A stretch of 58,146 nucleotides of DNA from a bacterium. Its GTDB lineage: Bacteria > JAUVQV01 > DATDCY01. Made by a program: the position numbers and the translations under genes. The notes below the pieces were generated by a model, which saw only the letters and a list, made by a program, of their open reading frames with translations, was not told the origin of the DNA and did no database searches. The stretch covers positions 1-58,146 of the forward strand of contig DATDCY010000279.1 of the NCBI GenBank assembly GCA_036524115.1. Reading direction: 5' to 3'. This document shows, one piece after another, positions 13,017 through 32,820 of this stretch (the stretch's first letter is position 1; each line of letters starts with the position of its first letter).

Positions 13017-13034
13017 GCATCGACATACTGTCTC

Positions 13035-13063
13035 TTGCCGCTGAAGTTGCACTCCCCGATAAT
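13035..13063 (+). promoter_or_regulatory. possible sigma70 promoter TTGCCG-N17-GATAAT
   Basis: Hexamers at 13035-13040 and 13058-13063, about 48 nt upstream of ATG 13111. Confidence 0.35.
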
Positions 13064-13110
13064 CTCGTCATGATCGTCACTCTCCGTTTCGGGCCCATCG
13101 TCGTCAATCC

Positions 13111-14238: not shown

Positions 14239-14243
14239 CGACC

Positions 14244-14951
14244 ATGCCGGCACGGTTCGCCGCCATCTTCTTCGTGCTGCTGGCCTTGCCCCTGCCCGCC
14301 GGCGCCGGGACGATCCAGCTTCCGCGGACCGGGCAGAGCACCTGCTACGACGCGACCGGCGTCATCATCGACTGCGCCAACACCGGCCAGGACGGCGACA
14401 CGCAGACCGGGGTGCCCTGGCCTTCCCCCCGCTTCACGGACAACGGGGACGGCACCGTCACCGACAACCTGACCGGGCTGATCTGGCTCAGGGACGCCAA
14501 CTGCACCGACACCGTCGGGGGGATTCCGCGGGCCGGCGGGCTGCTGAACTGGCCCTCGGCGCTCACGTGGTGCAACAGCCTGGCGCACGGCAGATGCGGC
14601 CTCGCCGACAACTCCGTGGCCGGCGACTGGCGCCTCCCCAACATCAACGAGCTGAAGAGCCTCGTCGACCACTCGCGACACGACCCGGACCTGCCCGGCG
14701 GTCATCCGTTCCGCAATGTTCAACCCCTGTGGTACTGGTCGTCCACGTCGAACCCGGTCTACACCGCCGGCGCGTTCAACGTCGGGATGAGCCGCGGCAG
14801 CATCCACGTCACCGACAAGCTGCCCAGCCGGTTCGGCTCCAGCAATGTCTCGGACAAGGAGGAAAGCGCCCTCGGGGTCTGGCCGGTCCGCGGCGGGCAG
14901 CCGGCCCGCGAGCGGAGGAATCCCTCCCCTACCGTGCCTCCGGCGCCATGA
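14244..14951 (+). CDS. secreted DUF1566 (Lcl C-terminal domain) protein, single-domain paralog
   Basis: ATG 14244 lies inside ORF 13878..14951. Signal peptide MPARFAAIFFVLLALPLPAGAG, then TGQSTCYD...NTGQDGD...DWRLPNINELKSLV...YWSSTS. Confidence 0.75.
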   Translation: MPARFAAIFFVLLALPLPAGAGTIQLPRTGQSTCYDATGVIIDCANTGQDGDTQTGVPWPSPRFTDNGDGTVTDNLTGLIWLRDANCTDTVGGIPRAGGLLNWPSALTWCNSLAHGRCGLADNSVAGDWRLPNINELKSLVDHSRHDPDLPGGHPFRNVQPLWYWSSTSNPVYTAGAFNVGMSRGSIHVTDKLPSRFGSSNVSDKEESALGVWPVRGGQPARERRNPSPTVPPAP

Positions 14952-16053: not shown

Positions 16054-16054
16054 G

Positions 16055-17479
16055 TCACCTCCGGTAGGGACTCAATTCCCCGTCGGCATAGGCCGACCGC
16101 GGGAAGGGGATGTAGTCGGGGTGATAGAACTGGATGACGACCTCGTCCGCGAAGAACCGCCCCTTCTCGGTGAGCGTCACCAGCCCCTCCCGCTCCTCGA
16201 GCAGGCCGTACCGCGCCAGCCTCTCGATCCTGTCGCCGAACTCTCTCTCCAGCGGCGTGCCCGTCACGGCTTCGTAGCGCCTGCGGTCGACGCCGGCGTG
16301 CTTCAACGAGACGCAGACCGCCCACCGGCGCACGTCGTCCGCGGTCTTGATCTTGCCGCGGGCCACGGGCAGCCTCCCCCGGTCGACGGCGGCGTGATAA
16401 TCGTCGAGGCCCCTGCCGGTGTTGATGAAGAAGCGGTCCTGGAGGTTGTTCCAGGCCGAGATGCCGAATCCCAGGACGTTGGCAAGGCGGTCCGTGTGGT
16501 CCTGCAGGTACTCCGAGTTGTGCTCCGGCCCGCGGGCGAACACCCGCCTCGAGGTCTCCCGATAGCCGTTCCGCTCCGAGATCAGCAGTCCCAGCTCCTT
16601 CATGAGGTAGATCTCCTCCAGCGGGGGGAAGATCTCGGGGGAGGTGTCGTACATCTTCGTGATCGAGCCCGGCCGTGCTCCGTGGGGGACGATGCGCAGG
16701 CGGTACAGCTGATAGGCGTCGACGCCGAGGGCGGCGGCGGTCATCAGCGTCTCCACCCAGTTCTTCAGGGTCGACCCCGGGTAGCCGTAGATCAGATCGA
16801 TGCTGACGCTTTCGAAGCCGGCGTCGCGGATCGCCTGGAGCGCGTCCCGTGCATCCCGGGCGGTGTGCAGCCTCCCCGTGCCCTTCAGGATGCCGTCGTC
16901 GAAGGACTGGACGCCGAGGCTGATCCGGTTCACGCCGCCAGCCTTCATCGCCCGCAGCTTGGCCCTTCCCTCCGGGCCGAGGATGGTCGTCGGCTCCGTC
17001 TCGCAGGTGATCTGACGGCAGTTCCCGAGGTCGAAGTCCTCGGCGATCCCCCGCAGGAACCTCTCCGTCTGGGCCGGGGAGAGCATCGAGGGCGTGCCGC
17101 CCCCGACGAGGATGGACGTCGGGGAGATGACCGCCCCCCCGAGGAGGCCCTGGTAGATTCGCACCTCCCGCCGCAGGGCGTCGAGGTAGCGGTCGACCTC
17201 CTCGCTCGAATTGCCGACGCAGACCACCCAGTGGCAGTAGGCGCACCTTCTCGGGCAGAAGGGGAGATGGAAGTACAGCGAATTCCGGCCTCCCGCAGCG
17301 AACGAGAAGCCGCGGAAGATGTCCTCCTGGGTCGCCTCGGGATACTTGGTGATCGGCGGGTAATAGATGGCGGGGAAGTAGCCGCCGTCCAGCGGCAGGA
17401 ACCCGGCCTTGCGCAGCTCCTCCGTGGCAAAGGATCGAATCCTCGCGCTCGCCAGTGCCAACATCTCAGCGTGCTGCAT
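16055..17479 (-). CDS. HemN/HemW-like radical SAM protein (coproporphyrinogen III oxidase family)
   Basis: CPRRCAYCHW (CxxxCxxC), GGGTPS, SLGVQSFDD and DLIYGYPG, plus a C-terminal HemN_C-like region. Start is ATG 17479 or 17464. Confidence 0.85.
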   Translation of the reverse strand: MQHAEMLALASARIRSFATEELRKAGFLPLDGGYFPAIYYPPITKYPEATQEDIFRGFSFAAGGRNSLYFHLPFCPRRCAYCHWVVCVGNSSEEVDRYLDALRREVRIYQGLLGGAVISPTSILVGGGTPSMLSPAQTERFLRGIAEDFDLGNCRQITCETEPTTILGPEGRAKLRAMKAGGVNRISLGVQSFDDGILKGTGRLHTARDARDALQAIRDAGFESVSIDLIYGYPGSTLKNWVETLMTAAALGVDAYQLYRLRIVPHGARPGSITKMYDTSPEIFPPLEEIYLMKELGLLISERNGYRETSRRVFARGPEHNSEYLQDHTDRLANVLGFGISAWNNLQDRFFINTGRGLDDYHAAVDRGRLPVARGKIKTADDVRRWAVCVSLKHAGVDRRRYEAVTGTPLEREFGDRIERLARYGLLEEREGLVTLTEKGRFFADEVVIQFYHPDYIPFPRSAYADGELSPYRR

Positions 17480-18575
17480 CGCTCTTGTCCGGCCTGGGGG
17501 CCGCCCGGGTGAAGACAAGGACATCCTCCAGGGGGACGAGATCGGCGTACTCCCGCTGCAGGGCATACCCCGCGCGTGCAAACGCCTCCCTGCCCGCCTG
17601 CGACAGCCCCGACGTGAACAAGGCGTCGCTTCTCAGGAACTTCCGGAATCGCTGGACGATCAGGAGCTTGTTGATCATCCTGGCCTTTTCACCGGAAACC
17701 CAGGTTGCGTTCGGTGTCCCCCGCACCACGCTCTGCCGGTTGTTGGAGAGGGCGAGCCATTGAACGAACTCCCGCTCTCCGGGGCTGAATGCCAGATCCT
17801 TCCTGAGGGCCTCGCCGTCGAGGAAGGCCATGCCGAAGTTGGCGTCCGCCAGCGTGGCGTTGAAATCCCCGGCAACCGCAGCGGCCAGACCCGCAGCAGC
17901 GCCCGATCCCGCCGACGCCCTCATCACCTCCGGGGTGGATTCCCGAAAGACCCGGGAGAACGGGGAGTCGAGGCGTTCCCGCAGGATCTCCCTGGCAAGC
18001 GCTTCGTGGTCGTCGGTGAAATCGGCCGCGGAGAAGTCGGGGACGCTCTTCTGGAGGATGAGGACGAGCCGCCCGCCCGGCGCCAACGACCCCAGGAGGT
18101 ATCTCAGGAACTCGGCTTCCTTCCCGTAGTCCATGAGGACGTGGAACATGGCGATCAGCTCGTAGGTGTCCGATCGATAGAAGGGGTCGAGGCCGTCGCG
18201 TTTCACCAACGCGGGGACGATGTTCGGAAGCCCCCGTGCCGCTGCCTGCTCCTGCACGTACCGCACGCAGCCCTCGTTGACATCGGTGGCGTACACTCTT
18301 CCCTGCCCGTGGAGCCGATCGGCGAAGGCGTATGCGAACTGGCCGGTGCCGGTGCCGAGATCCAGGATGGTCATCCCCGGCCTGATCGCCAGCACGTCCC
18401 AGAGCGCCGCCGTGTTCAGCATCTCGAAGCGCCGGCTGTCGCGCTCGATCCTCCCGGGGACGAGGACGCCGCTCTGGGTGCCCGAATGCGCAGCCGCCGC
18501 GGGGTTCCCGGCCGCGACGAGCAGCGCCGGCACCAGGCACAGGAGCCGGAAGGCGGCCGTTCCGTGGTTCTTCAT
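17466..18575 (-). CDS. class I SAM-dependent methyltransferase with N-terminal signal peptide and long C-terminal extension (paralog 2)
   Basis: ATG 18575 overlaps the upstream stop (ATGA). MKNHGTAAFRLLCLVPALLVAAGNPAAAAHSG, then ILDLGTGTGQFAY and GGRLVLI. Alignable with 14929..16053 over its whole length. Confidence 0.8.
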   Translation of the reverse strand: MKNHGTAAFRLLCLVPALLVAAGNPAAAAHSGTQSGVLVPGRIERDSRRFEMLNTAALWDVLAIRPGMTILDLGTGTGQFAYAFADRLHGQGRVYATDVNEGCVRYVQEQAAARGLPNIVPALVKRDGLDPFYRSDTYELIAMFHVLMDYGKEAEFLRYLLGSLAPGGRLVLILQKSVPDFSAADFTDDHEALAREILRERLDSPFSRVFRESTPEVMRASAGSGAAAGLAAAVAGDFNATLADANFGMAFLDGEALRKDLAFSPGEREFVQWLALSNNRQSVVRGTPNATWVSGEKARMINKLLIVQRFRKFLRSDALFTSGLSQAGREAFARAGYALQREYADLVPLEDVLVFTRAAPRPDKSDAAR

Positions 18576-19828
18576 CGCTCGTCCGTCCTCTTGCCGGCGA
18601 CGCGGCTCATGACGCGGTAGGCGCAGACATCGCCGCAGACGCTGCACCCCGCTCCTTTCTCGCCGGCCTGCCTGAGCACGGTCCTCACCCGCTCGTCCCG
18701 GGCGAACGGCAGCTGGTCCTTCCAGGAGCCGGCCTCACGCGCGACGGAAAGAGCGTGATCCATCTCCCGGTCCTTTCCCCGCGCCAGATCGGCGCCGTGG
18801 CAGGCCAGCGCCGCGACGATGCAGCCCTCCCTGGTCTGCTCCTCGTCCGGCATGCCGAGGTGCTCCGCCGGCGTCACGGCGAAGATTTCGTCGGCCCCGG
18901 CGAGGAGGGCGATGATCTGCCCCATGGCGGCGCTGGCGTGATCGAACCCCAGCGAGATGTCGGTGACCTGGGGGCCGAAGCAGGTGATGGGGACGCGCAG
19001 CAGCTCCTTCTGATAGCGGATGAAGGGGCCGATCCTGTCGGCAGGCAGGTGCCCCCCGGAGCCGGCCATGATCTGCACGCCGGCCGCCCTGGCGCGGCCG
19101 ACATACTCGGCCATCGTCTTCAGCTCCTCGTACTGCGGGCCGTCGAGCGCGTCGTGAATGCAGCCCGAGCGGAAGGAGCCGACGACGGACAGGGTCGTGC
19201 CGTGCTCCTTTGCCAGCGCGAGGATCTCGTCGAAATGGCGGCAGTAGGGGTTCTCCCGGTCGTTGTGCGCGATCCAGGCGCTCATGATCGAGCCGGACTT
19301 GCTGCAGCAGGGCATCACGCGCCCGCTGTCGTTCAGCCCCGCCACGATCGACCGGGAAATGCCCAGCGGCAGCAGCAGCACCTCGATGCCCTGCTCGATG
19401 TCCCTCCTGGCCGCCTCGATGAATTCGCCTTCGGCGAGATCGACGAAGGGCCTCTGGCGGAGGCAGGCGTCGGCCATGACACCGATGGGATGGCACAACG
19501 CAAGGGGGGCGGCCACGGCGTCCCGGAGGCGCCGGTGCATCTCCCGCACGTCGCCGCCGGCGCTGCCGTCGTGGACGACGGCCGCCCCCTGCTCGACGGC
19601 GATCTTCGCCTTCCTGACGACCGTCTCCATGTCCGGCTCCGCCGTGGACGTGCCGACGATGCAGGCGAATTTCGCCCTGAGGCCCTTCCCGATGCCGACC
19701 GGCCGCACCCCCGCCCGCCCGGACGTGATGATCACCGCCTCGCCGGCGGCGTGGGCGGCGGCGAGCGCCTCGACGGGCACCTGCTCCCGGTGGGCCACCT
19801 CGGCTACTTCCTTCGGCGAAACAGGCAT
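18572..19828 (-). CDS. ThiC-family (phosphomethylpyrimidine synthase/BzaF-like) radical SAM-dependent enzyme, divergent
   Basis: GSGGHLP (compare GPGHVP), FGPQVTDISLGFDHASAAMG, TPAEHLGMP and the C-terminal Cys cluster CSVCGDVC. Confidence 0.8.
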   Translation of the reverse strand: MPVSPKEVAEVAHREQVPVEALAAAHAAGEAVIITSGRAGVRPVGIGKGLRAKFACIVGTSTAEPDMETVVRKAKIAVEQGAAVVHDGSAGGDVREMHRRLRDAVAAPLALCHPIGVMADACLRQRPFVDLAEGEFIEAARRDIEQGIEVLLLPLGISRSIVAGLNDSGRVMPCCSKSGSIMSAWIAHNDRENPYCRHFDEILALAKEHGTTLSVVGSFRSGCIHDALDGPQYEELKTMAEYVGRARAAGVQIMAGSGGHLPADRIGPFIRYQKELLRVPITCFGPQVTDISLGFDHASAAMGQIIALLAGADEIFAVTPAEHLGMPDEEQTREGCIVAALACHGADLARGKDREMDHALSVAREAGSWKDQLPFARDERVRTVLRQAGEKGAGCSVCGDVCAYRVMSRVAGKRTDER

Positions 19829-19832
19829 ATCC

Positions 19833-21038
19833 CTAGGGCGATGTGGTGAACGAGCGGCCCTCGACCCCTTTCCAGTAACGCTCGACCGCGGCCGCCAGGT
19901 CCTCCTCCCGCCCGATCAGACACTCGGGGACCGCCTCGCGCCCGGAGAACCCCCCGGCGCCCCCGGTGAAGAAGGACAGGACCGTTTCCCCTTCCCGGAT
20001 CGTACCCTCGTCGATCGCCTGGAGCGTGCCGGCAAGGGCCATGATCCCCGCCTTCTCCATGATCTCCTCCCGGCCGTTCACCTCCCTCGTCTTCACGGGG
20101 ATGTCGTTGTTCGCGAGCTCTCGCAGCAGCAGCGGCAGGCGCCTTTCGTACTCCTCCCGCCGCAGGGCGCGCAATTCGCCGCCGTAGCGCTCCAGGTGCC
20201 GGCAAAGCAGGGGATAGCTCCCCTCGGGGTTGGTGTTGTACAGCGCCTGATCCAGCAGGTCGTCCGAGACGCACTCGGCGTCCTCGGCCTCGATCCGCCG
20301 GTGCCCCTTCCGCCAGGCCCGCGCCATCGGCGAGCGCGCTTCCTGCTGAATCCCGAGGAACTTCGGCACGCCCTCGACGCCCATGGCGCCTTCGCGCACC
20401 AGCGCTCCGACCCGGTCGTAGAAGCCGATGGGGCCGAACCCCGCGCAGATCGTCTGGCTCACCCAGTCGAAGCGCAGCCGCCGCTCCACCATGGTCTCGA
20501 AGACGAACAGCGCCCGCAGGCCCGTGGCGGCGAAGCGCCACTCCAGCGCCGGAACGTGCGGGATCCCGCTCATCTCCGCGAAGAGCAGGGCGGCCCTCTT
20601 GACGTCCCTCTCCGGCCTGTCGACCGAGATGACGTGCGCGCCGGGGAACGCGAAGGAGGCGTCGTCGAGCTTCCAGGAAGTGGCGTCCGGGTGGAAGAAG
20701 AAGGTCTCGACGCCCGCGCTGCGGCCGTACAGCGAAAGGGCCGCGCCGAGATTGGCCCCCGAGGAGAAGGCCGCCGCCCGGTAACCCCTCTTGCGGCACA
20801 GGGCCATGACGAAACAGGCTTCCAGCGACTTGAAGGTGCCGGACGCCATCAGCGTCGATTCGTCGTCGAGATAGACCCGGACGCCCTTGTATTCGAGGAA
20901 CTCCAGGATCCGGGCCCCTTCCCGGAGGCTGACCCGACGATAATCGTCCTCGCTCAATTCATCGAACCCGATTGCCCGATGGTAGCGAAGGATCAGGCTC
21001 TCTCCCGGGGCGAACGCCGGGTCGACGTGCCTATCCAC
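19833..21038 (-). CDS. PLP-dependent enzyme of the tryptophan-synthase-beta/threonine-synthase-like fold (start uncertain)
   Basis: ASGTFKSLEA is a candidate PLP-lysine motif, with SSGANLGAALS and a Gly-rich FFTGGAGG near the C-terminus. GTG 21038 overlaps the upstream stop by 8 nt. The track's start at 21128 would overlap by 98 nt. Confidence 0.6.
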   Translation of the reverse strand: MDRHVDPAFAPGESLILRYHRAIGFDELSEDDYRRVSLREGARILEFLEYKGVRVYLDDESTLMASGTFKSLEACFVMALCRKRGYRAAAFSSGANLGAALSLYGRSAGVETFFFHPDATSWKLDDASFAFPGAHVISVDRPERDVKRAALLFAEMSGIPHVPALEWRFAATGLRALFVFETMVERRLRFDWVSQTICAGFGPIGFYDRVGALVREGAMGVEGVPKFLGIQQEARSPMARAWRKGHRRIEAEDAECVSDDLLDQALYNTNPEGSYPLLCRHLERYGGELRALRREEYERRLPLLLRELANNDIPVKTREVNGREEIMEKAGIMALAGTLQAIDEGTIREGETVLSFFTGGAGGFSGREAVPECLIGREEDLAAAVERYWKGVEGRSFTTSP

Positions 21039-22200
21039 GGCTCGGACTCTTCGGCCGGGAGCGCACGGTCTTCCGAATGAGCGCGAGGATCTCGGCTTCG
21101 GAGACGCCGCGCTCCCGGCTTGCGGCACGCAGGGCGCGGAGGATCGCGGCGCTCTCGCGCCTCCCCGGGGCGAGCCCGAGCTTCCGGCAGAACGGCTCGA
21201 GCGCGTCGGTGTAATCCACCGGGAGCGTGAAGGCGAACTTCCTGGCCGCGCCGATCGCCTCCGGCTCGAAGGGCTCGAAACCGCGGCGGTTGCCGGACGC
21301 CGCGTTGCGGATGTGCTGGACCGGCGAGTGGAGAAACGTGAATTCCCCGACGACGGCCTTCACGCGGCACTTGTCGATCCCGGAGAGTTTCTCGACGAGC
21401 CCCGAGAGGGCGCTCACCTTCTCCAGCCGGAGCCCGGTCCGCACGCCGTGGAGCACCTCCAGCGCGAGCACCACCTCTTCCAGAGCGGCGTTGCCCCCGC
21501 GGTCCCCCAGGCCGTTCGTCACGACGTCCGCGCCGGCGGCGCCGGCGGCGAGGCCGGCGAGCGTGTTCGCCGTCGCGAGGCCGAAATCGTTGTGACAATG
21601 CACGACGATCGGCAGGGAGCATTTCTTCTTCGCGCCGGAGACCATGGCCGTCATCAGCTCCGGTGTGGCGACGCCGGTCGTGTCGTAGAGGATGACCCGA
21701 TCCGCGCCGGCTCCCTGGCCCTCGCGCATCAGCCGGACGAGAAATGCGAGATCCGTCCTCGTGGCGTCGACAAAGCCCAGCCCCACCCGCACCCGGCGTC
21801 TCTTCGCGTGGGCCAATCCGTCCCGGAGCAGCCCGGGCAGGCCGCCCTTGCTGATCTTGTAGTAGTCCTTGAGATTCAGGAGGGTGTCGGACGTGGGAAC
21901 CAGCAGCTCGACCCGATCGAGGCTCGATGCCGCGGCGACGTCGATATCCTCCCTGCACCTCGCGCGGTGGGCGAGGACGAGCGCCGATGTCCGGATTCGC
22001 AGGCCGCGGGACTTGATCGCCGCCGCCAGGGGCAGGCAGCCCCGGATGCCGTAGGGCATGCCGATCTCGATCTCCGGGACCCGCATCTCCTCGAGCATCA
22101 GAACGATCTTCAGCTTCTGCGCGAGGGACAGCTCGACGCCGGGCAGCTCCAGCCCCTCGCGCAGGGTGGAATCTCTGATGAGCACGGGCTTCACGATCAC
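21031..22200 (-). CDS. HMGL-like DRE-TIM metallolyase (homocitrate/isopropylmalate/citramalate synthase family)
   Basis: IRDSTLREG, HCHNDFGLATANTLAGLAAGA and LGDRGGNAALEEV. GTG 22200 follows AGGAGA. Confidence 0.85.
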   Translation of the reverse strand: MIVKPVLIRDSTLREGLELPGVELSLAQKLKIVLMLEEMRVPEIEIGMPYGIRGCLPLAAAIKSRGLRIRTSALVLAHRARCREDIDVAAASSLDRVELLVPTSDTLLNLKDYYKISKGGLPGLLRDGLAHAKRRRVRVGLGFVDATRTDLAFLVRLMREGQGAGADRVILYDTTGVATPELMTAMVSGAKKKCSLPIVVHCHNDFGLATANTLAGLAAGAAGADVVTNGLGDRGGNAALEEVVLALEVLHGVRTGLRLEKVSALSGLVEKLSGIDKCRVKAVVGEFTFLHSPVQHIRNAASGNRRGFEPFEPEAIGAARKFAFTLPVDYTDALEPFCRKLGLAPGRRESAAILRALRAASRERGVSEAEILALIRKTVRSRPKSPSRG

Positions 22201-22216
22201 TCGGTCTCCTGTTGAC

Positions 22217-23101: not shown

Positions 23102-23128
23102 AACCTCCCCGAACTGCCGCGCCTCTGG

Positions 23129-25519: not shown

Positions 25520-25533
25520 GGCTGATGCTCCCC

Positions 25534-28500
25534 TCACTGCCCGGGGGCCAGGATATGCCAGCCGTCCGTCGTCGAGGTCTTGCGGTGGCAGTTGTTGGCC
25601 GCGAGGTTGGCGCCGCTGACCCCCCAGGTGCTGAGGCCCGTGTCGATGCAGCTCTGGATGAGCAGCGCCGGCAGCCCGCTGGCGTGCGGGCTGTGGCACT
25701 TGGAGCAGGTGAACGCGTGGGCCTTGCTGCCCGGCCCGTCGGCGCCGCCGACGGTGCCGCTGCCGTACCAGTTGGCGTAGTCCGCGCCGTACCACCCGCT
25801 GTTCGCGACGACCCAGCCGCAGCCCGAGGGCGGGCACTGCTTGGAGGTGCACGACTGGGAGAAGGGATAATTCCCGTTGTCGCAGCCGCTCGAGCAGCCC
25901 ATCTGCAGGCCCATCCCGCAAACGGCATTGACCGGGTCGCGGTTGCCGGAGAAGAGGTCCACCTTGGACGCACCCGTCCCCCCCAGGCAGGAGTTGCTGT
26001 GGCCGTTGGTCATCCCGGGAAGCCAGAGCTTGGAGCTGCCGTAGTAGTCCATCGTGTCCACATTCGCGCCGTGGCACAGGGCGCAGAGCCCCGCCGTCTC
26101 GTCCACGGTGTCCATCGCCGCGTTCTTCGTCGGCCAGTTGCTGTTCTGGTCGATGAAGTACCCGCCCTTGTCCCGCGACGTGCTCAGGCCCCGGGGCGTC
26201 GTGCTGTATCTGCCGACCTGGGTCGTGTACGTGTACGTGCTGCGGGGCGGAAGCTCGGGTGGATAGGGGTTGCCCACCCAGGTGCCCCGGAGGTAGGGCT
26301 TCCCACTGGGGCCGAAGGTGTCGTGGACGTCGTGGCAGTACGAACAGCGGATCGTCCCCTTGGGCTCCAGGGTCGGGGAGGTCCGCTCGACCATCCCGTT
26401 CCCGCGGACGTTGGCGGCCACGCTCGAGGATTGCCCGGCGGCGTCGAAGCTCGCGGTGTGCACCGACGCGACGCGACGCTTCAGGCGCGAGTCGTAGGCG
26501 GACATCCAAAAGCCCTGCGTCCAATCGGAGGCCTTGGTTGCGTAGGACGACGAGGTGTAGAGCCAGCCGTGGTCCTCGGACTCCTGGTTGCCGTCCGATG
26601 TTGGGAAGGTGGCGACCGGAAATCCGACGGGAGTCGTCTTCGTGTTGTAGCCCCACTCACTGACGGGGGTCGCCACGCCCTCGTGACACCCCCAGCAGAT
26701 GTCGGCCTCGTTGGCCCTTCCGTTGATGGAGGCCACCGTGCCCGGGCCGCCGAGGCCGATCCCCCCGGCGTAGGCGATGCCCAGTTGGGTCCGCATGTTC
26801 GTGGAGCCGAGGTTGGGATTGCTCCAGCTGGTGGGCGGCAGGGGAATCCGCACTCCCTTGTAGTGACCGGCGTGGCAGTCCTTGCAGGTGCCCGACCCCC
26901 CGGGTGCCGTGATGTGCGAGCTGGCCATCGTGACGACCGGGGCGAGGGTCCCGCCGCCGCCATTGTGGCAGGAGGAGCAGGCCACCGTCGTGCTTCCCCA
27001 GGCCGGCGTCGCCGCGCCATGACAGGTGCTGGCCGGCGTGCCGGCGCAGGTCCCGTCGTCGATCCCGTCGCCGGCGCTGCCGGTGAGGATGCCGAAGCCG
27101 TCGGGGTCGTTGTAGATCACCACTGCGTTGTCGGTGTAGGAAAGCTGGCTGCCGTTGTATGCGGCCGTGGCGGCCGTGCCGTCGAAGGCCAGCTGCCCGG
27201 CGCCATCCTGGTGGCTGTTCGTGTAGGAGGTCGTCCCGGGGTGGCACGAGTTGCACTCCGTGTAGTCCGTGTCGCTGTTCGCGTGCGCGGCGTGGCTGCC
27301 TGCGCTGGGCCCCGATGTCGGCGGGGAGGCGTGGCAGCTCTCGCAGCCGAAGGCGGGGCCCCGGGAGGGGGTCGCCGTCGCCGACTGGGCGTCGTTGCTG
27401 GTGGCGTTCAACGGGTCTGCGCTGTCCCTGGCGCGCACGCCGTAGCAGTAGGTGAGGCCGTTCGCGAGCCCCGTGTCCTGGAAGGAGGTCGAGCCCAGGC
27501 CGGGCCGATACAGGTTGATGCCGTCCCAGAGCCCGGCGCAGGAGGCGTTCTGGACGCGGTAGAGATCATAGAAGACCGGGGGGGTGGTTGCCAGCCCGGG
27601 GTCGGTGGCGCTGTTCCAGGAGACCTGGACCACGCCGTCCGTGCTGGCGTCCTGCGCCGCGATCCCGGAGACGCCTCCGTTCCACGTCGGCGGAAAGGTG
27701 TCCAGGATTGTCTCGTTGAGGGTGACCTGGTTCGCGATTCCCGGGTAGCTGTCGTAGGCGATCCGGTGGTTCACGGAACCGTAGAAGTAGTTGTAGTAGT
27801 AGAAGAGGATCGCCAGACGGCTGCCCGCCGGCACCGTCACCGCGAGGGGACTCAGATTGAGCGAGTAGGCGGCCATCGCGGTGGTGAGCCCCCCCGTCTG
27901 CACGTACCGCGTCATGTCCGCCGTGTGGTTTCCGCTGGCGTCCACCGCGGCAAAGACCACAAGCACCTGTTCGAGGTAGGAGAGGTTGAGCTCACCCTGG
28001 AAGCCGAAAGTGTTCCCGGTGGCCGATCCGGTGACCCGGGTCTTGTTCGCGTACGGCGCGCTGTAGAACCCGGCGAAGTTGCGCCACTGATAGCTCCACG
28101 GCGTGGCGTCCGATGCCATGTAGTTCTCGGTGCTTTCCGTTCCGCAGTTCTTCGCCGTGGTCAGGAGCCCCAGGCCCGCCGGCGGTGCCGCGGGCGTCGG
28201 CACCGCGTTCCACAGGGGTGCGCCACTGACCGCGAGGTTGGCGGTGGCAGTCCCGCAGGTCAGGCTCAGGTTCGTGTTGACCGAGCCCCAGAGGTTGGTG
28301 GCGCCGGCGGGCTTGGTGAGGTAGTAGACCGTCTGTGAGCTCGTCGGAGGGGTTGCCGCCCCCGGCGCCACGCCGGCGGAGATGTCGGTGTTGGTGGTCT
28401 CGTTCCTGGTGACCCAGTTGTCCTTGGCGCGGACGCCGAAGTAGTAGGTCGTGCCGACCGTGAGTCCCGTCACCGTGGTGCTCGTCCCCGTCAAGTCCGT

Positions 28501-31500
28501 GGCGATGGGCGGCCCGACGAAGACCGCGGCCGCGGAGTTCGTCGTTGAGGCATAGAGATCGTAGCTGACCGGGTTCGAGGGGTAGGCGTCGGTGGCCGCG
28601 TTCCAGGTCACGTTCAAGACCCCGCCCAGGTTGGGGTTCGTGGCGGCGATGCCGGAGTTCGGGGACCAGGCCGGAGGCGCCGTGTCCGGCGTGTAGTACC
28701 AGCCCGGCGTCGTCGAGCCGGCGTGGCAGTCGACGTTCGTGCAGGTGCTCGAGGCCGCGACGAAGGCGCCGTCGGCGTCGGTGCCGCCCGTGATCGTCTT
28801 GAACCTGCTGCTCACGCCGTCCATGACGTCGGCGGGCGGGGCGGACTGGTCGCCCGAGTGAGCGCCGCCGGGGTGGCACCAGTTGCACGTGCTGGCGTTG
28901 TCCGCGCTCGTCCCCGGGTTGCCGGCCACGATCGCCGCGACGTGCTTCTGGTGCGCGCCGGGGCGGTTCTCGTAACCCGAACCGTTCTGCACGCCGCCGT
29001 CCGGGTAGACGTTCGCGCCGCTTGTGCCGTGGCAGGCGCTGCAGCTGCCCGGACCGATGTCGCGGGCGCGCAGCGGGCTGACGGTCGGCATGGTCCCGGC
29101 CGCCGGGCCGATCCGGTGGCTGGCGTCGTCCAGGTGACAGGCGGCGTTGGCGCAGCCGCCACTGGACGGGTTGTAGTTCGCGTCGTCGGTCGAGGCGGCG
29201 TTGCCGTCGTCGTTCATCGTCACGCTGCCGTCCCGGTGGTCCGTGGCCGGCACGTAGGTGTAGCTGCCGTTGAGCACGGCCGGGTCCTGCACGACGAAGC
29301 CGTCCAGGGTGCCGTTGGCCTTCACGCCGTGGCAGATCCCACACTCGTTGTGGTTGCCCTTGAGCGCGGCGGTGTTCCCGGGCGTGATCGAGTCGTGATA
29401 GACCGCCTCGGCGCCGGCAGCGTGCAGGTTGTAGTTCGCGCCCCCGTCGGCGGCACCCGTCGGCGGGTAGCCGTGGCAACTCGTGCACGAGGCCCCGCCG
29501 AAATTGACCGCGGACACGCTCCAGTTCGAGTTCTCGAGCCGGTGCCCGGCGTCGTTCCCGTGGCAGACCGCGGCGTTGCTGCAGCCGAAGTTCGCCTCGT
29601 CGTACCCGGTGCCGGTCGAGGGTTGCGGGCCGTTCATCTGGATGGCGCCATCTCCGTGCATGCCCGAGCCATCCCGCGGGTTCCAGAAGTTCGCCCCCGC
29701 CGTGTAACCGGCGTGCCTGTCGCTGCGGGAGTTCGCCCCGTGGCAGGTTCTGCAGGTCTGGTGCGTCCCGGCCGCCAGGAGCTCGGACGAGGCGTCGCCG
29801 TCCCAGTTGTACCCGTGCTCGACGGAGTTGTCCGCGCCGTTGTGCGCGCCGCCGCCGAAGGTCCAGTCATTTGCGAACCCGCCATGGCAATTGGCGCACT
29901 CCGTCCCGTCGGTGTTGGCCGCGCTCGTGTCCCAGCGACGTCTCCAACTCCCGGCGTCGCCGTTGTTCACCGTCGGGCCGTGGCACGTCGCGAAGGCGCC
30001 GCCGTTCGGGCCGCAGGTGGGCGTAGCGGCGTCGACGAAGCCGACGCTCGAGTCGAGATGGACTCTCGGGAGGCTGCCGTCGAGGGACCCGACGCTGGCG
30101 TCGAACACGCCGTCGATGTGGTTGGCCGCCGGCTCCGTCGGCGTTGTCGTGTGGCACGTGGCGCAGTCGCCCACGACCGGGCCGTCCGCGCCGTCGGCGT
30201 CCCAGGAGCCGTCGTGGCTGTTGCCCGTGACGCTGGGTGTCACGGCGTGCAGCCCGCTCACCGGGGCGTTCGCGCCGCCGCCGATGTAACTGCCGTCATG
30301 GCAGTCCAGGCAGGCCAGCGTCGTCGCGCTCGTCCAGTCGCGCCCGTCCGTCACCGCGTGGCAGGTATTCGCGCACACGCCCGTCGCCGGCGTGTACGGG
30401 AACGCAACGTCGTGGCTGCCGTTGAAGTGCGCTGCGTGCCGTCCCGCCGCCGCCCCCGCGCCGTGGCAATCGCTGCAGCCCCCGGACACGTACGCGCTGT
30501 TGTTCAGGTGCGGCGTGTGCTCGCCCGACGTCAGCGGCCAGCCGCTGAGGATCCCGCTGGCGTACAGCATCTTGCCGCTCGCGGCGTGGCAGTCGGCGCA
30601 GGAGGCCAGCGTCGTCGCGCTCCACGCGCCCGCGCCGCCCGAGCTGTTGTGACAGCCGTTGGCCGCGCCGTCGCAGTTCGCCTCCGTGTCGAAGGCGCTC
30701 GTGTAGTCGAACGCCGCCGTCATGTACGAACCGCCGAAGTTCACCGTCCCGCCCGTCCCGTGGATGCCCGTCCCCGGCGGCTGCGACCGGCCGTCGTGCG
30801 GGTGGCACACCTGGCAGCCTGCGACGTAGCCCGAGGCGACGTGCGCGTCGTGCGTCGCCTGGCTCTTGGTCGTCCCGAGGTGGCTGCGGCCGTTGGCCGC
30901 GTGGCAGTCGTTGCAGGAGGACTGCGCCCGCCAGCCCCCCAGCGCATCCTTGTTGTGGCTGTGGCACGTGTTGCAGTCGGTCCCCGGAGCCTGCTGCCCG
31001 CCCTTGTGCGTGGTGCTCGGCGAGTTGATCCACGCCGACAGCGGCGAGTACCCGCTCCCATGGCAATCGGCGACGTCGCAGACGCCGTTCGCGTCGCCGG
31101 TGCGGAAGAAGTCGAGGATGGTCGTGGAGTTGGCGTGGTAGTCCCCCGTCGAGGCAAGGTCCCACTTGGGCGTGTCGTAGACGACCGTCTCCGTGCCGGC
31201 CCTGTTCGCGAACTGGGACAGCGGCGCCTTGTAGTACCCGGCCCTCTTGGCCTTCTCCGGGATCATCATCACGTTCGAGGTGGTTCCCACCCCCTCGGCG
31301 TGCTCGTCGTGACAGTCCTGGCAGCCCACCCCGCCGGCGCTCGCCGTCTGGTGCGCCTGGTAGCTCTGGTGACAGGAGATGCAGATGCCCACCAGCGGGT
31401 TGCCCATCGCCGAGCCCGTGTCCCACGCCTGCAGCGTGCCGCTGAGGTTGAACTTCCGGAGGTACCGGTCCTGGTCCGTCGACCCCGACGTGTCGTTCGC

Positions 31501-32652
31501 GTGCGGCTTCTGCGCCGGGTCCAGCCCCACGTGGCACGCGGTGCAGGTGTAGCCCATCGTGACCTCGGTGCCGCTCGCGTCAGGCGCTGCGTTCTTGTAC
31601 CGGTAGGTGCTCTGCGCCATGCCGTGGCCGTGCTTGTAGTAGTTCCCCCCGTCGGCCAGGTTGTTCCAGTCGCCCGCGTAGTGGCACACGCTCGTGCAGT
31701 CCCCGCTGACCACCGGCGTGTCCGCCGTCATCCCGGTCCCGGTCTTGTGCTGCTCGTGCCCGTCGTTGAACAGCCGCCGGTTCGAGGAGTAGTGCGTATC
31801 GTGGCAGACCGTGCACTGCGCCGTCATCGCCAGGCCGGTGACGTCCGCCGCGCCGTTCGCGTCCAGGTCGGCGGTGCGCAGCACCGTGCTGTCGTTCTCG
31901 CGGAGCGGACGCCCCGCGCGCCCGTCCGCGTGCGCCAGCAGCCGCATGCTCACGCCCTTGATCGTCTGCGCAGCGTCGCTGCTGTGGCACGTCCGGCACA
32001 GCGTGTCGTACTCGCCGGCCGCCGTGACGCTCTTGAGCATGAACGGGTTGCCCACCGGGTCCGCCGGAGGTCCGTGTTCGGGGTACTTGTCCGCCGGCCC
32101 GCCACGCGAGGTCGCGGCGTTGCCATCGCTGCCCTCGTCGACGGTCGTGGTCGCCGGGTCGTCGCGGCCATCCGCGCAGCTGACGAGATCGTGGCAATCG
32201 ACGCAATCGAGCTCGTAGCTCGTCGCGGAATCGAGGGTGCTGAGGAACTCGTTGCGCGTATCGCTGCCCGCGCCCCGGAAGTCGTACCCCACGGGGTGGA
32301 AGGACGTCCGGCTCCGAAAGTCGCTGAGCGCCGGCTTCATCGTCCCCGTCCGGCCGCTGTCGTTGTGGCAGAAGGTGCAGCCGAGTCTCGGGGGGCTCTG
32401 GCCGGCCGGCAGCCCGGCGTACTGCGCGATCAGCGGGAAGGTGCGGACCAGCCTGTTGATGAAGCTGGTGCCCGCAGCGCCCTCGGTCTCATCCAGGGTG
32501 TGGCAGGCGTAGCAAGCCTCGCCGGCGTCGTGCGCGGCCTGTGCGGCGGGGGGGCGCGCCGCGGCGAGGGCGACGAGCGTCACCAAGCACCCCGCGAGGA
32601 GCAGGAGGCTTCGCGGCGGCGGTCCTTGTTGCACCGTATCCGCCATAGTCAT
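25534..32652 (-). CDS. giant (2372 aa) exported multihaem c-type cytochrome with Geobacter-type CxxxxCH...CxxCH repeats and two FN3-like domains
   Basis: Signal or anchor sequence ...PRSLLLLAGCLVTLVALAAARPPAAQA. Hand count from the translation gives 29 CxxCH and about 10 CxnCH variants (for example CDVADCH, CANAACH, CTNVDCH). FN3-like modules VLNVTWNAATD...YYFGVRAKD and VVQVSWNSATD...YCYGVRARD. Confidence 0.9.
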   Translation of the reverse strand: MTMADTVQQGPPPRSLLLLAGCLVTLVALAAARPPAAQAAHDAGEACYACHTLDETEGAAGTSFINRLVRTFPLIAQYAGLPAGQSPPRLGCTFCHNDSGRTGTMKPALSDFRSRTSFHPVGYDFRGAGSDTRNEFLSTLDSATSYELDCVDCHDLVSCADGRDDPATTTVDEGSDGNAATSRGGPADKYPEHGPPADPVGNPFMLKSVTAAGEYDTLCRTCHSSDAAQTIKGVSMRLLAHADGRAGRPLRENDSTVLRTADLDANGAADVTGLAMTAQCTVCHDTHYSSNRRLFNDGHEQHKTGTGMTADTPVVSGDCTSVCHYAGDWNNLADGGNYYKHGHGMAQSTYRYKNAAPDASGTEVTMGYTCTACHVGLDPAQKPHANDTSGSTDQDRYLRKFNLSGTLQAWDTGSAMGNPLVGICISCHQSYQAHQTASAGGVGCQDCHDEHAEGVGTTSNVMMIPEKAKRAGYYKAPLSQFANRAGTETVVYDTPKWDLASTGDYHANSTTILDFFRTGDANGVCDVADCHGSGYSPLSAWINSPSTTHKGGQQAPGTDCNTCHSHNKDALGGWRAQSSCNDCHAANGRSHLGTTKSQATHDAHVASGYVAGCQVCHPHDGRSQPPGTGIHGTGGTVNFGGSYMTAAFDYTSAFDTEANCDGAANGCHNSSGGAGAWSATTLASCADCHAASGKMLYASGILSGWPLTSGEHTPHLNNSAYVSGGCSDCHGAGAAAGRHAAHFNGSHDVAFPYTPATGVCANTCHAVTDGRDWTSATTLACLDCHDGSYIGGGANAPVSGLHAVTPSVTGNSHDGSWDADGADGPVVGDCATCHTTTPTEPAANHIDGVFDASVGSLDGSLPRVHLDSSVGFVDAATPTCGPNGGAFATCHGPTVNNGDAGSWRRRWDTSAANTDGTECANCHGGFANDWTFGGGAHNGADNSVEHGYNWDGDASSELLAAGTHQTCRTCHGANSRSDRHAGYTAGANFWNPRDGSGMHGDGAIQMNGPQPSTGTGYDEANFGCSNAAVCHGNDAGHRLENSNWSVSAVNFGGASCTSCHGYPPTGAADGGANYNLHAAGAEAVYHDSITPGNTAALKGNHNECGICHGVKANGTLDGFVVQDPAVLNGSYTYVPATDHRDGSVTMNDDGNAASTDDANYNPSSGGCANAACHLDDASHRIGPAAGTMPTVSPLRARDIGPGSCSACHGTSGANVYPDGGVQNGSGYENRPGAHQKHVAAIVAGNPGTSADNASTCNWCHPGGAHSGDQSAPPADVMDGVSSRFKTITGGTDADGAFVAASSTCTNVDCHAGSTTPGWYYTPDTAPPAWSPNSGIAATNPNLGGVLNVTWNAATDAYPSNPVSYDLYASTTNSAAAVFVGPPIATDLTGTSTTVTGLTVGTTYYFGVRAKDNWVTRNETTNTDISAGVAPGAATPPTSSQTVYYLTKPAGATNLWGSVNTNLSLTCGTATANLAVSGAPLWNAVPTPAAPPAGLGLLTTAKNCGTESTENYMASDATPWSYQWRNFAGFYSAPYANKTRVTGSATGNTFGFQGELNLSYLEQVLVVFAAVDASGNHTADMTRYVQTGGLTTAMAAYSLNLSPLAVTVPAGSRLAILFYYYNYFYGSVNHRIAYDSYPGIANQVTLNETILDTFPPTWNGGVSGIAAQDASTDGVVQVSWNSATDPGLATTPPVFYDLYRVQNASCAGLWDGINLYRPGLGSTSFQDTGLANGLTYCYGVRARDSADPLNATSNDAQSATATPSRGPAFGCESCHASPPTSGPSAGSHAAHANSDTDYTECNSCHPGTTSYTNSHQDGAGQLAFDGTAATAAYNGSQLSYTDNAVVIYNDPDGFGILTGSAGDGIDDGTCAGTPASTCHGAATPAWGSTTVACSSCHNGGGGTLAPVVTMASSHITAPGGSGTCKDCHAGHYKGVRIPLPPTSWSNPNLGSTNMRTQLGIAYAGGIGLGGPGTVASINGRANEADICWGCHEGVATPVSEWGYNTKTTPVGFPVATFPTSDGNQESEDHGWLYTSSSYATKASDWTQGFWMSAYDSRLKRRVASVHTASFDAAGQSSSVAANVRGNGMVERTSPTLEPKGTIRCSYCHDVHDTFGPSGKPYLRGTWVGNPYPPELPPRSTYTYTTQVGRYSTTPRGLSTSRDKGGYFIDQNSNWPTKNAAMDTVDETAGLCALCHGANVDTMDYYGSSKLWLPGMTNGHSNSCLGGTGASKVDLFSGNRDPVNAVCGMGLQMGCSSGCDNGNYPFSQSCTSKQCPPSGCGWVVANSGWYGADYANWYGSGTVGGADGPGSKAHAFTCSKCHSPHASGLPALLIQSCIDTGLSTWGVSGANLAANNCHRKTSTTDGWHILAPGQ

Positions 32653-32671
32653 ACTCGCCTAATCCTGACTG

Positions 32672-32680
32672 ATATTACCA
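32672..32680 (-). promoter_or_regulatory. possible extended -10 promoter (TGGTAATAT) of the giant cytochrome gene
   Basis: The reverse complement of 32672-32680 reads TGGTAATAT. It lies in an AT-rich patch about 20 nt upstream of ATG 32652 (AGGA RBS in between) and downstream of a terminator-like hairpin. Confidence 0.35.
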
Positions 32681-32739
32681 GAAATTGACGGAAAGGTTAC
32701 ACGAGAGTTACGGACTTCGCGGCAACGGACAAACGGATA

Positions 32740-32770
32740 GAGGGCGGGTCCCTTGCCGGGGCCCGCCCTC
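32740..32770 (-). terminator. terminator-like hairpin after the octahaem cytochrome gene
   Basis: GAGGGCGGG (32740-32748) pairs with CCCGCCCTC (32762-32770), and flanking ACGGAT/ATCCGT can extend the stem. On the minus strand it is followed by TATCCGTTT. Confidence 0.6.
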
Positions 32771-32820
32771 TGGATCCGTCCTGTGCCTTCCTGCCCGCGC
32801 CGGTGCGAGCGGGGACGGCG

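Follow-up and report, generated by a model that had tools for sequence, protein, structure and literature searches.

Why does the gene for a giant multihaem cytochrome stand at the head of a string of biosynthetic genes? We asked this of contig DATDCY010000279.1 of the bacterial assembly GCA_036524115.1, of which positions 1 to 58,146 are called the window here. The nine genes concerned (g1 to g9) probably form one transcription unit that joins two modules: an extracytoplasmic pair, the giant cytochrome g1 with its Big_1 partner g2, and a rare cassette, g3 to g9, acting across two compartments. The cassette recurs in several phyla, and in each of them its S-adenosylmethionine (SAM) methyltransferase-fold proteins carry export signals. 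The explanation that we tentatively favour, and to which we give just short of an even chance, is that a small molecule is made in the cytoplasm, exported, and then finished or used in the periplasm.

Nine co-oriented genes meet two convergent genes

As the window has ∼70% G+C, spurious long open reading frames (ORFs) are frequent, and genes were therefore chosen by third-position G+C (GC3) frame analysis together with their translations. This yielded nine minus-strand genes at 14929-32652, with successive junctions from g1 to g9 of +14, +27, +16, -8, +4, -4, -14 and +1 nt. The start of g8 at 17479, which gives the junction of -14, was favoured because its orthologues align from residue 1. The genes and their borders are:

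25534..32652, minus strand: g1, giant exported multihaem c-type cytochrome, 2372 aa
23129..25519, minus strand: g2, exported Big_1 surface protein, 796 aa
22217..23101, minus strand: g3, EamA/DMT-family membrane transporter, 294 aa
21031..22200, minus strand: g4, DRE-TIM (HMGL-like) enzyme, relative of homocitrate and isopropylmalate synthases
19833..21038, minus strand: g5, fold-type II pyridoxal phosphate (PLP) enzyme (PALP) of the threonine-synthase/cysteate-synthase type
18572..19828, minus strand: g6, ThiC-family radical SAM enzyme
17466..18575, minus strand: g7, Sec-exported class I SAM methyltransferase-fold protein (g7 type), 369 aa
16055..17479, minus strand: g8, cytoplasmic HemN-like (class C type) radical SAM enzyme, 474 aa
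14929..16053, minus strand: g9, Sec-exported class I SAM methyltransferase-fold protein (g9 type), 374 aa
14244..14951, plus strand: lclA, exported Lcl_C (DUF1566) protein, 235 aa
13111..14238, plus strand: lclB, exported protein with two Lcl_C domains, 375 aa
32653..32820, minus strand: intergenic leader of the string, a hairpin and T-containing tail, then an AT-richer patch with a TAATAT box before the ATG of g1

The original prediction, made from the sequence by a model, had described the nine genes with these junctions, order and domain labels, and both the frame analysis and the Pfam and NCBIfam matches agreed with it for every gene. Signal-type N-termini were present on g1, g2, g7 and g9 and absent from g4, g5, g6 and g8, so its two exported methyltransferases stood as well. 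It had also placed a hairpin and an AT patch 5' of the cytochrome gene. Read directly, the leader contains a GC-rich hairpin (AGAGGGCGGG...CCCGCCCTCT) followed by ATCCGTTTG and the TAATAT box, although a strict consensus scan flagged neither the hairpin nor the box. The hairpin is likely the terminator of the octahaem cytochrome gene that lies upstream. Between 14.0 and 33.9 kb, the consensus scan found no excess of internal signals over shuffled sequences (one promoter-like signal against 0.9 expected, seven terminator-like signals against 7.3), and a single transcription unit for the nine genes is plausible. At the other end, the string does abut a convergent gene, as g9 overlaps lclA by 23 nt. 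What did not survive unchanged is the notion of a nine-gene unit: the string is tight and co-oriented, but it is a composite of two modules, and the two convergent Lcl_C genes (13111-14951), which had been missed, belong with it.

The cassette is conserved across phyla

We then asked whether this arrangement could be a chance association. Genomic contexts were recovered for relatives of the ThiC-like clade, the PLP enzyme and the g9 methyltransferase, and were compared by tblastn. The cassette, comprising the EamA transporter, the homocitrate synthase (HCS)-like enzyme, the threonine-synthase-like PLP enzyme, the ThiC-family and HemN-like radical SAM enzymes and two methyltransferases, was found in rearranged form in L001-L004, L007-L013 and L016-L022 (L numbers denote loci). 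Among the named metagenome-assembled genomes (MAGs) that carry it are Rokubacteria, Planctomycetales (39.5% GC), Desulfobulbaceae and Riflebacteria, and related proteins are additionally named from Thermodesulfobacteriota and Terriglobales. Because the gene order is conserved in relatives from other phyla, the arrangement is not due to chance, and the view of the seven distal genes as a biosynthesis-and-export cassette was borne out. The loci fall into four types:

Type A: the window, L005, L008 (Rokubacteria MAG) and L019, together with the cassette of L010, whose contig starts inside the EamA gene; order cytochrome, Big_1, EamA, HMGL, PALP, ThiC-like, methyltransferase, HemN-like, methyltransferase
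Type B: L001, L002 and L017; EamA, HMGL, PALP, ThiC-like, HemN-like, methyltransferase
Type C: L003/L004/L013, L007, L009 (the Planctomycetales MAG of 39.5% GC), L011 and L018; a solitary cassette, in some cases with cupin domains
Type D: L020 (Desulfobulbaceae), L021 and L022 (Riflebacteria); HemN-like, EamA, nitroreductase, PALP, short HMGL, g9-type methyltransferases

The constant core of the full cassettes consists of the HemN-like enzyme, EamA, PALP and at least one exported methyltransferase, with an HMGL-like enzyme in all but L022, where the short HMGL was not found. A ThiC-like gene is absent from the type D locus DNA examined; a nitroreductase replaces it there, so that the ThiC-like enzyme is not the constant component that it had been taken for. 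The Lcl_C genes converge on the cassette in the window, L005 and L019 among the type A loci (the contigs of L008 and L010 end earlier), and lclB and lclA are both present in L020 and L021 of type D. In type B the cassette faces a convergent operon for a different giant cytochrome (∼1360 aa), accompanied by a small methyltransferase with an export signal, by FGE-like and/or Lcl_C proteins, and by a beta-sandwich, a CarboxypepD_reg and a 760-aa membrane protein. An outlier, L006, has the HMGL-PALP-ThiC core only and lacks EamA, HemN-like and methyltransferase genes; alongside the core are genes for an ABC importer and a protein of the Peptidase_U32 family. The G+C fraction of the cassette (0.682) is lower than that of its flanks (0.717 and 0.733). 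Together with its occurrence in phyla of widely differing base composition, this suggests that the cassette moves as a module, and it has probably spread by horizontal transfer.

Several loci carry additional genes. In the Rokubacteria-like loci L008 (12461-16741) and L019 (11251-15530) an exported 203-aa protein, a type I phosphodiesterase-like protein and a sulfatase, all with signals, are encoded between the ThiC-like gene and the methyltransferases, one of which is extra; the window is without these three inserted genes. L007 encodes a 728-aa exported protein (11177-13363) in which two cupin domains are joined to a cassette-type methyltransferase, and in L003 a separate 367-aa cupin protein follows the HemN-like gene. 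In L006 (7695-16396) the core genes are 33-48% identical to those of the window; the locus further encodes a protein of 514 aa that weakly matches HD, and the binding protein of its importer is NMT1/ThiY-like. L021 has a further pair of EamA and HemN-like genes on its minus strand at 17394-21071 (47% identity to g3, 39% to g8), beside a HydE/PylB-like radical SAM gene; between this pair and the operon of cytochrome, Big_1 and methyltransferase genes described below lies the gene for an exported Reg_prop-like protein of 313 aa.

Methyltransferase-fold proteins of the cassette carry export signals

Methylation by SAM-fold enzymes is regarded as intracellular chemistry, and we therefore looked closely at g7 and g9. 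Both are recognisable class I SAM methyltransferases, with several Pfam methyltransferase domains above cut-off (Methyltransf_25/31/11 for g7) and intact SAM-binding motifs; in the family the DIGAGPG motif is invariant or nearly so and T107-D108 is nearly invariant. In g7 the signal segment is MKNHGTAAFRLLCLVPALLVAAGNPAAAA, with the cleavage site before H. For g9 we collected more than 110 relatives at ≥48% identity, and a Sec-type N-terminal hydrophobic signal segment was present in 96 of the 107 that are full length. Most of the relatives that lack it look like mis-called starts, as the AxA site before KPP is still visible. In the ThiC-like clade, used for comparison, such a segment was found in only 1 of 46 proteins. 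Every cassette methyltransferase, in every phylum, has the positively charged N-terminus, hydrophobic core and AxA-type site, and signals are also present on the neighbouring small methyltransferases, a TehB-like methyltransferase, and the Lcl_C, FGE-like, sulfatase and phosphodiesterase proteins. No export signal was seen on the HMGL, PALP, ThiC-like, HemN-like or nitroreductase proteins. The model of g9 (pLDDT 84.8) consists of a Rossmann methyltransferase core with a helical insertion of ∼150 residues. Its Foldseek matches are all SAM methyltransferases, mostly small-molecule ones, and the insertion itself had no match in the PDB; one relative, P0229 (542 aa), repeats the helical insertion behind its methyltransferase core. 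Exported enzymes with the SAM fold, of which this family appears to consist, are unusual. METTL9 has been termed the first secreted methyltransferase (2025 preprint), and literature searches for bacterial exported SAM methyltransferases returned no description.

Could the convergent Lcl_C proteins be partners of these enzymes? LclA matches Pfam Lcl_C with 86.5 bits, its start and signal peptide are fixed, and its gene converges on g9. It is 68-72% identical in L001, L002, L017, L020 and L021, across types A, B and D, which exceeds the identity of any enzyme in the same loci and places LclA among the best-conserved proteins of the system. LclB, encoded 5 nt upstream of lclA, matches Lcl_C in two stretches (194 bits) and is 51-61% identical in L017, L020 and L021. 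In two metagenome proteins, P0178 and P0180, a g9-type methyltransferase is fused with LclA, and this is direct evidence of joint action. On the strength of these comparisons we assign the Lcl_C genes to the system.

The cytoplasmic enzymes diverge from the characterised families

The transporter g3 has two EamA repeats (122 bits against a Pfam cut-off of 28.2) and many hydrophobic segments. A protein of this type is encoded in every full cassette examined, and its gene directly adjoins that of the HemN-like enzyme in six loci (L007, L009, L018, L020, L021, where it does so twice, and L022). It is presumed to export either the cassette product or SAM. For the four soluble enzymes g4, g5, g6 and g8, the NCBIfam models offer no equivalog whose cut-off is reached. 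The best NCBIfam score of g4 is 253 bits against a cut-off of 485; the protein has a clear HMGL-like domain (Pfam, 171 bits) and its closest solved structure is a homocitrate synthase (6ktq). The homocitrate, isopropylmalate and citramalate synthases share the motifs R(E/D)GEQ and xxEDAxR. In the g4 family REG(L/M)E stands in place of REGEQ and GFVDATR in place of xxEDAxR, with HxHND retained; the type D versions have REGLD and GFPHATQ and lack the C-terminal subdomain. The catalytic roles of the replaced residues are those established in MtIPMS and HCS. The HemN-like enzyme g8 combines Radical_SAM and HemN_C domains, with the CX3CX2C cluster motif (CPRRCAYC) at residue 75 and GGGTP at 126. 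It scores 171 bits against the 325 of HemN (TIGR00538), 168 against the 400 of ChuW/HutW, and ∼170 bits, below cut-off, for STM4012, and it is equally near NocN (9p2u, E 2.9e-29) and HemN (1olt, E 3.5e-29). Orthologues of g8 at 49-93% identity are present in every cassette. A relation to the STM4011-4015 neighbourhood, prompted by the HemN-like protein together with the sulfatase and phosphodiesterase neighbours, was considered and dropped, as there was no STM4013-type NCBIfam match.

The PLP enzyme g5 is remote in sequence from any solved structure (E 1e-3). It matches PALP with 53.7 bits, and scores 54 bits against a cut-off of 303 for threonine synthase and 46 against 325 for cysteate synthase; Lys70, the PLP lysine, is nearly invariant. 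Foldseek searches with its model (pLDDT 93.7) ranked threonine synthases (6nmx, 1v7c) and CapA2 (9k3c) at the top, with TMq 0.67-0.68, at 17-21% identity to the solved threonine synthases. The family is rare (∼140 clusters at E≤1e-30 in 1.84 billion representatives). By these comparisons g5 represents a new family of PLP enzymes, whose reaction, judging from the modelled fold, is most likely a beta- or gamma-replacement on an O-phospho-amino acid. The gene adjoining PALP, which overlaps it in most loci, encodes either the ThiC-like enzyme (types A-C) or the nitroreductase (type D), and the partner of the PLP enzyme thus appears to be an interchangeable redox or radical enzyme. The type D nitroreductase scores 49-55 bits against a cut-off of 150 for BluB (TIGR02476) and 53-69 bits for FbiB-C. 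We had considered that the swap might mirror the relation between BzaF and BluB. With BluB so far below cut-off and FbiB-C as good or better, this was set aside and is retained only within a weak rival explanation below. Fusions were noted among more distant PALP relatives: P0404 carries an acyl-CoA-dehydrogenase-like domain, P0412, P0414 and P0415 have the same length and layout, and P0431, P0434, P0444, P0454 (3824 aa) and P0458 are fused to a ribulose-phosphate-3-epimerase-like domain, P0431 with an additional PRK/uridine-kinase domain.

Finally, we asked where g6 stands within the ThiC family. It matches ThiC_Rad_SAM with 327 bits and falls short of the ThiC models NF009895 (320 against 410) and TIGR00190 (291 against 460) as well as of BzaB (TIGR04386, 275 against 700). 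Around it lie ∼50 metagenomic proteins at 46-100% identity, after which identity drops to ≤39% for true ThiC and BzaB. At least 98% of the clade retain the three cysteines of the C-terminal Fe-S motif (Cys395, Cys398 and Cys402) and the counterparts of His426 and His490, the two histidines of the second metal site. The roles of some of the phosphate ligands of ThiC are also known. In g6 several invariants of ThiC and BzaB are substituted (AtThiC numbering): Glu422 by Gly, Gly423 by Ser, Asn226 by Ala, Tyr286 by Ile, His322 by Pro and Gly344 by Ser, and in a pairwise alignment of the window protein Asp383 is Gly. The exchange of Glu422 for Gly occurs in 98% of the clade, and Glu is present in 100% of ThiC-group sequences. 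Glu422 and Asp383 contact the aminoimidazole of aminoimidazole ribotide (AIR) in ThiC, and at such positions BzaF departs from ThiC only about three times, having Asn in place of Asp383 where g6 has Gly (PMC12661338). As the contact residues are replaced, the clade probably has a different chemistry or substrate. By score, identity and residues alike it stands as a discrete third clade of the ThiC family, neither ThiC nor BzaB/BzaF. The CX2CX3C spacing is not a mark of this clade, since all 61 short ThiC/BzaB sequences have it.

The giant cytochrome is a recurrent but optional neighbour

The g1 protein has a signal peptide and 29 CXXCH motifs, with nine CX3-11CH variants in addition (motif count), as expected of a multihaem c-type cytochrome. 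Its middle region is fn3-like, its C-terminal module is Cys-rich, and Pfam matches are to Cytochrome_C7 (76 bits), Cytochrom_c3_2 and fn3. The g2 protein has a signal peptide, an N-terminal half without an assigned domain and three Big_1/Invasin_D3 Ig-like domains (Pfam). A g2 homologue invariably follows a g1-type cytochrome, in L005, L008 (61% identity), L019 (73%) and L021 (45%). Compared with L008 and L019, the cytochrome is 56-59% identical and the enzymes are 78-85% identical, so the cytochrome changes far faster.

Is the cytochrome then tied to the cassette or only adjacent to it? The original prediction had proposed a search for synteny in relatives, and its outcome was divided: the adjacency is kept in L005, L008 and L019 and recurs rearranged in L021, but in at least seven lineages the DNA examined shows the cassette without a cytochrome. 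In L021 an 893-aa cytochrome, 51% identical to residues 1891-2372 of g1, forms a co-oriented operon with the g2 homologue and a g7-type methyltransferase (46% identical to g7), and this operon adjoins the rearranged type D cassette. The different giant cytochrome of L001, L002 and L017 lies ∼9 kb off, within 10 kb of the cassette. A cytochrome thus adjoins or lies near the cassette in three lineages, and the L021 operon and the type B cytochromes indicate that the link is more than a local accident. The cytochrome-Big_1 pair is constant within type A, but type A is one lineage. We regard the cytochrome as a client or partner that the cassette has repeatedly but not always; where one is present, the cassette product may serve extracytoplasmic redox or metal chemistry. 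In the frameshift-rich assembly of L005 there is a separate gene for the N-terminal part of g1 (64% identical to residues 128-577), and the cytochrome seems to have been split or rearranged between this locus and the window. The gene stands beside one for a DUF6811 protein (L005 17859-18146) that is 81% identical to the product of window 10741-11109 (plus strand), a few kb from the system in both.

Other genes surround the string in the window. Directly upstream, on the same strand, is the gene for the octahaem cytochrome (32821-34008, minus strand; eight CXXCH; Multi-haem_cyto, c554-like), followed by those for a 4Fe-4S ferredoxin-domain (Fer4) protein with a long His-rich run HGGHHHGHHGHHEGHHAHRGHGHHGG (34140-34955, minus strand) and a Crp/Fnr-type regulator (35674-36369, minus strand). 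These three were considered as members of the unit and rejected, as none has a homologue in any related locus and the hairpin intervenes. Four consecutive genes at 37529-44203 (plus strand) encode proteins of ∼500-600 aa with C-terminal TPR repeats, one of them with a weak PMT_2 glycosyltransferase match, and are followed by a CHASE2-adenylate/guanylate cyclase gene (44296-46350, plus strand). AT skew is strongly negative (-0.16 to -0.25) over the cytochrome genes (26000-34000) and the TPR gene block (38000-46000), which presumably reflects amino-acid and codon composition. On the other side, a NikR-type nickel regulator gene (6158-6571, minus strand) adjoins a phosphoglycerate kinase ORF (6585-8129, minus strand), which in its longest reading, from a putative start, has an N-terminal extension of ∼90 aa.

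A small molecule made in one compartment and finished in another

How might these proteins work together? Starting from the genes, families and export signals described above, and from how the genes are conserved, exchanged and fused, we infer a possible order of reactions, classes of substrate, export of the product and a redox role. In the cytoplasm g5 would carry out its replacement on an O-phospho-amino acid, and its redox or radical partner (g6 here, the nitroreductase elsewhere) would modify the resulting scaffold, on which g4 would make or break a C-C bond beside a 2-oxo or carboxylate group. The scaffold would be amino-acid-derived and probably anionic. To it g8 would add a SAM-derived one-carbon unit, and g3 would carry the product over the inner membrane, where g7 and g9, together with the lectin-like LclA and LclB, would finish or use it. 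In the Rokubacteria-like lineage of the window, and independently in two other lineages, this machinery would have been wired to giant cytochromes, with the product probably meant for extracytoplasmic redox or metal chemistry. The original prediction had suggested an electron-transfer module that makes and exports its own small molecule. The conserved biosynthesis-export cassette and the recurrent cytochrome link fit that suggestion; an obligate cytochrome does not, and nothing shows a redox-active or metal-binding product.

Several observations weigh against this explanation. The ∼12 independent loci all come from uncultured MAGs or metagenome contigs, and scans seeded with the PLP enzyme returned 2 genome and 7 metagenome loci, so that co-occurrence statistics are small. 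As none of the enzymes reaches an equivalog cut-off, their reactions are deduced from superfamily, and that of g4 is uncertain because its canonical motifs are altered. Signal peptides were judged by simple rules on hydrophobicity, charge and the AxA pattern. The cassette has no cytochrome in the locus DNA examined of L003/L004/L013, L007, L009, L011, L018, L020 and L022 (the contigs of L009, L011 and L022 end close on one side, which limits their cytochrome-free status), and with at least seven such lineages a redox role would not be general. The supply of the methyl donor is a further difficulty, for we know of no SAM pool in the periplasm, and a source for the exported SAM-fold enzymes is only hypothesised. 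One possible answer is that EamA carries SAM, as the EamA/DMT family includes the SAM carrier of Chlamydia (PMC3104491). Another, modelled on C10P/C10Q (PMC10114718), is export of a covalent SAM adduct formed by the HemN-like enzyme, on which the methyltransferase fold would then act. Carried further, these answers lead to a bolder proposal that we consider possible, if rather doubtful: a dedicated extracytoplasmic SAM-type alkyl-transfer system, in which a SAM adduct made by the HemN-like enzyme, or SAM itself, is exported by EamA and used by the exported methyltransferase-fold enzymes paired or fused with LclA, in some lineages in the service of giant cytochromes, with the g6 clade as a third functional class of the ThiC family acting on a substrate other than AIR.

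We weighed the proposed two-compartment pathway against four other explanations. The exported methyltransferases might instead methylate macromolecules, with EamA exporting SAM or exchanging it for S-adenosylhomocysteine, LclA and LclB directing the enzymes to surface or periplasmic proteins or glycans (for instance the Asn/Asp/Gly-rich giant cytochrome or the Big_1 protein) and the cytoplasmic enzymes supplying a cofactor or co-substrate. The place of the Chlamydia carrier in the EamA/DMT family is in keeping with this, the fusions with LclA and the adhesin-like nature of Lcl_C would suit a targeting domain, and the L021 operon puts a g7-type methyltransferase beside a cytochrome and a Big_1 protein; moreover, structural neighbours of the methyltransferases include the Rickettsia OmpB lysine methyltransferases PKMT1 and PKMT2, and weak PCMT matches recur. 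Nevertheless we regard it as unlikely, for it leaves four always-linked cytoplasmic enzymes without a role, no cytochrome, Big_1 or Lcl_C protein accompanies the cassettes of L003, L007, L009 and L018, g3 matches no SAM-carrier-specific family, most Foldseek neighbours act on small molecules, and the Arg-rich conserved residues of the methyltransferases would suit a small anionic substrate. It is more improbable still that the cytochrome-Big_1 pair and the cassette are functionally unrelated and merely co-oriented in this lineage. That the cassette occurs alone in at least seven lineages, that the cytochrome diverges faster than the enzymes and that types A and B use different cytochromes would all agree with fortuitous adjacency. 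Against it stand the g2-g3 spacer of only 27 nt without an excess of terminators, the maintenance of the neighbours in L005, L008 and L019, the homologues of g2 and of the C-terminal part of g1 (45-51%) beside a variant cassette in L021, and a third arrangement with giant cytochromes within 10 kb.

The remaining two explanations concern the chemistry. In a pathway like those of the bza operon or of thiamin, g6 would rearrange AIR to a benzimidazole or pyrimidine that the HemN-like enzyme and the methyltransferases methylate, as BzaC, BzaD and BzaE do, and the end product would be an exported cobamide lower ligand, an antivitamin or a related cofactor. The characterised ThiC-family enzymes all use AIR, and BzaF is paralogous to ThiC (PMC12661338); the operon unites a ThiC-family enzyme, a methylase-type radical SAM enzyme and SAM methyltransferases, the type D nitroreductase belongs to the superfamily of the aerobic benzimidazole synthase BluB, and the L006 core has its NMT1/ThiY-like binding protein. 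Yet g6 misses the ThiC and BzaB cut-offs by a wide margin and has Gly at both contact positions, the nitroreductase is no closer to BluB than to FbiB-C, no locus contains CobT or other cobamide or thiamin genes, and no riboswitch for thiamin pyrophosphate, cobalamin or another ligand was found in the window and eight loci at the Rfam gathering threshold. As the HMGL and PALP genes and the export of the methyltransferases would also go unexplained, we consider such a pathway very unlikely. We think hardly better, indeed slightly less, of a periplasmic detoxification or volatilisation of metalloids (Te, Se, As, Sb), in which the cytochromes reduce the oxyanion, the exported methyltransferases methylate it, and the cassette supplies an exported thiol or carrier. 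An exported TehB-like methyltransferase does adjoin Lcl_C in L019, arsenite methyltransferase families are matched weakly, the cysteine/O-acetylserine exporter of E. coli belongs to the EamA family, the PALP fold is of the type that makes S-substituted amino acids, and multihaem cytochromes and small exported methyltransferases recur nearby. However, arsenite methyltransferases (ArsM) need Cys or His to bind the metalloid, and in the methyltransferase family neither is conserved; the surroundings contain no ars, ter or seleno genes, all such family matches are far below cut-off, and the problem of donor supply is the same.

If the two-compartment explanation holds, an exported methyltransferase family with its own transporter and radical SAM partner would raise the question of which molecules bacteria alkylate in the periplasm and by what means, and a confirmed mechanism of donor supply would make the system categorically new. 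To our knowledge only two reactions are known for the ThiC family, both among the most complex rearrangements known, and a third clade without Glu422 and Asp383 offers enzymologists an immediate target. That giant cytochromes are repeatedly linked to the cassette in uncultured bacteria of soil and sediment, Rokubacteria among them, hints at a small-molecule part of extracellular electron transfer or metal chemistry. At ∼8 kb the cassette is compact enough to be synthesised and expressed, and so is experimentally tractable.

Comparison with known systems

Does any described system have this composition? The original prediction knew of none, and literature searches and curated families yielded no description of the gene combination; each of the closest analogues departs from it in one or more defining features. 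The bza operon (BzaF or BzaA/B, BzaC, BzaD, BzaE) likewise gathers a ThiC-family radical SAM enzyme, SAM methyltransferases and a methylase-type radical SAM enzyme, but its radical SAM methylase is B12-dependent (class B) whereas the one here is HemN-like (class C). The low BzaB score and the lost aminoimidazole contacts of g6 also separate the two, as do the export of the methyltransferases, the additional HCS-like, PLP and EamA genes, and the lack of CobT and of a cobalamin riboswitch. In the C10P/C10Q cyclopropanase of CC-1065 (and in YtkT and Jaw5) a HemN-like radical SAM gene lies beside class I methyltransferase-fold genes, and the methyltransferase fold acts on a covalent SAM-substrate adduct made by its HemN-like partner (PMC10114718, PMC6050322). 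Here, too, the genes are adjacent, but export signals are on the methyltransferases (96/107) and not on the HemN-like enzyme. Since the methyltransferase-fold proteins carry Sec signals, a cytoplasmic complex of g8 with a methyltransferase of the C10P/C10Q kind would not be possible. There is also no polyketide synthase, non-ribosomal peptide synthetase (NRPS) or benzodipyrrole context, and an EamA transporter stands between the compartments.

The individual enzymes have analogues of their own. In fold and PLP-binding lysine g5 resembles threonine synthase and the cysteate synthase of the coenzyme M and capnine pathways, and g4 shares with the homocitrate and isopropylmalate synthases (DRE-TIM Claisen condensing enzymes) the barrel, the metal-binding HxH and the Arg of the RxG motif. 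Both are far below the equivalog cut-offs, with 17-21% identity for g5 and replacement of the EQ and ED motif residues in g4. The EamA/DMT carriers of Chlamydia and Rickettsia belong to the same superfamily as g3 and suggest a possible route for SAM or a SAM adduct, but they import SAM into the cytoplasm of obligate intracellular bacteria, and the kinship of g3 with them is at superfamily level. In overall logic the system comes close to pyoverdine maturation (PvdE/PvdO/PvdP/PvdN) and to the flavin processing of Shewanella by Bfe and UshA, both of which combine cytoplasmic synthesis, a dedicated exporter and periplasmic tailoring. The FGE/PvdO-like, phosphodiesterase and sulfatase neighbours of some cassette variants recall the former, and in Shewanella the exported molecule serves multihaem (Mtr) cytochromes. 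Unlike these systems, the one described here has no NRPS or flavin genes and uses other enzyme families, and we know of no description of tailoring enzymes with the SAM methyltransferase fold in the periplasm. We rate the system as a cluster for biosynthesis, export and periplasmic tailoring with two unusual elements, namely its exported SAM-fold enzymes and a third clade of ThiC.

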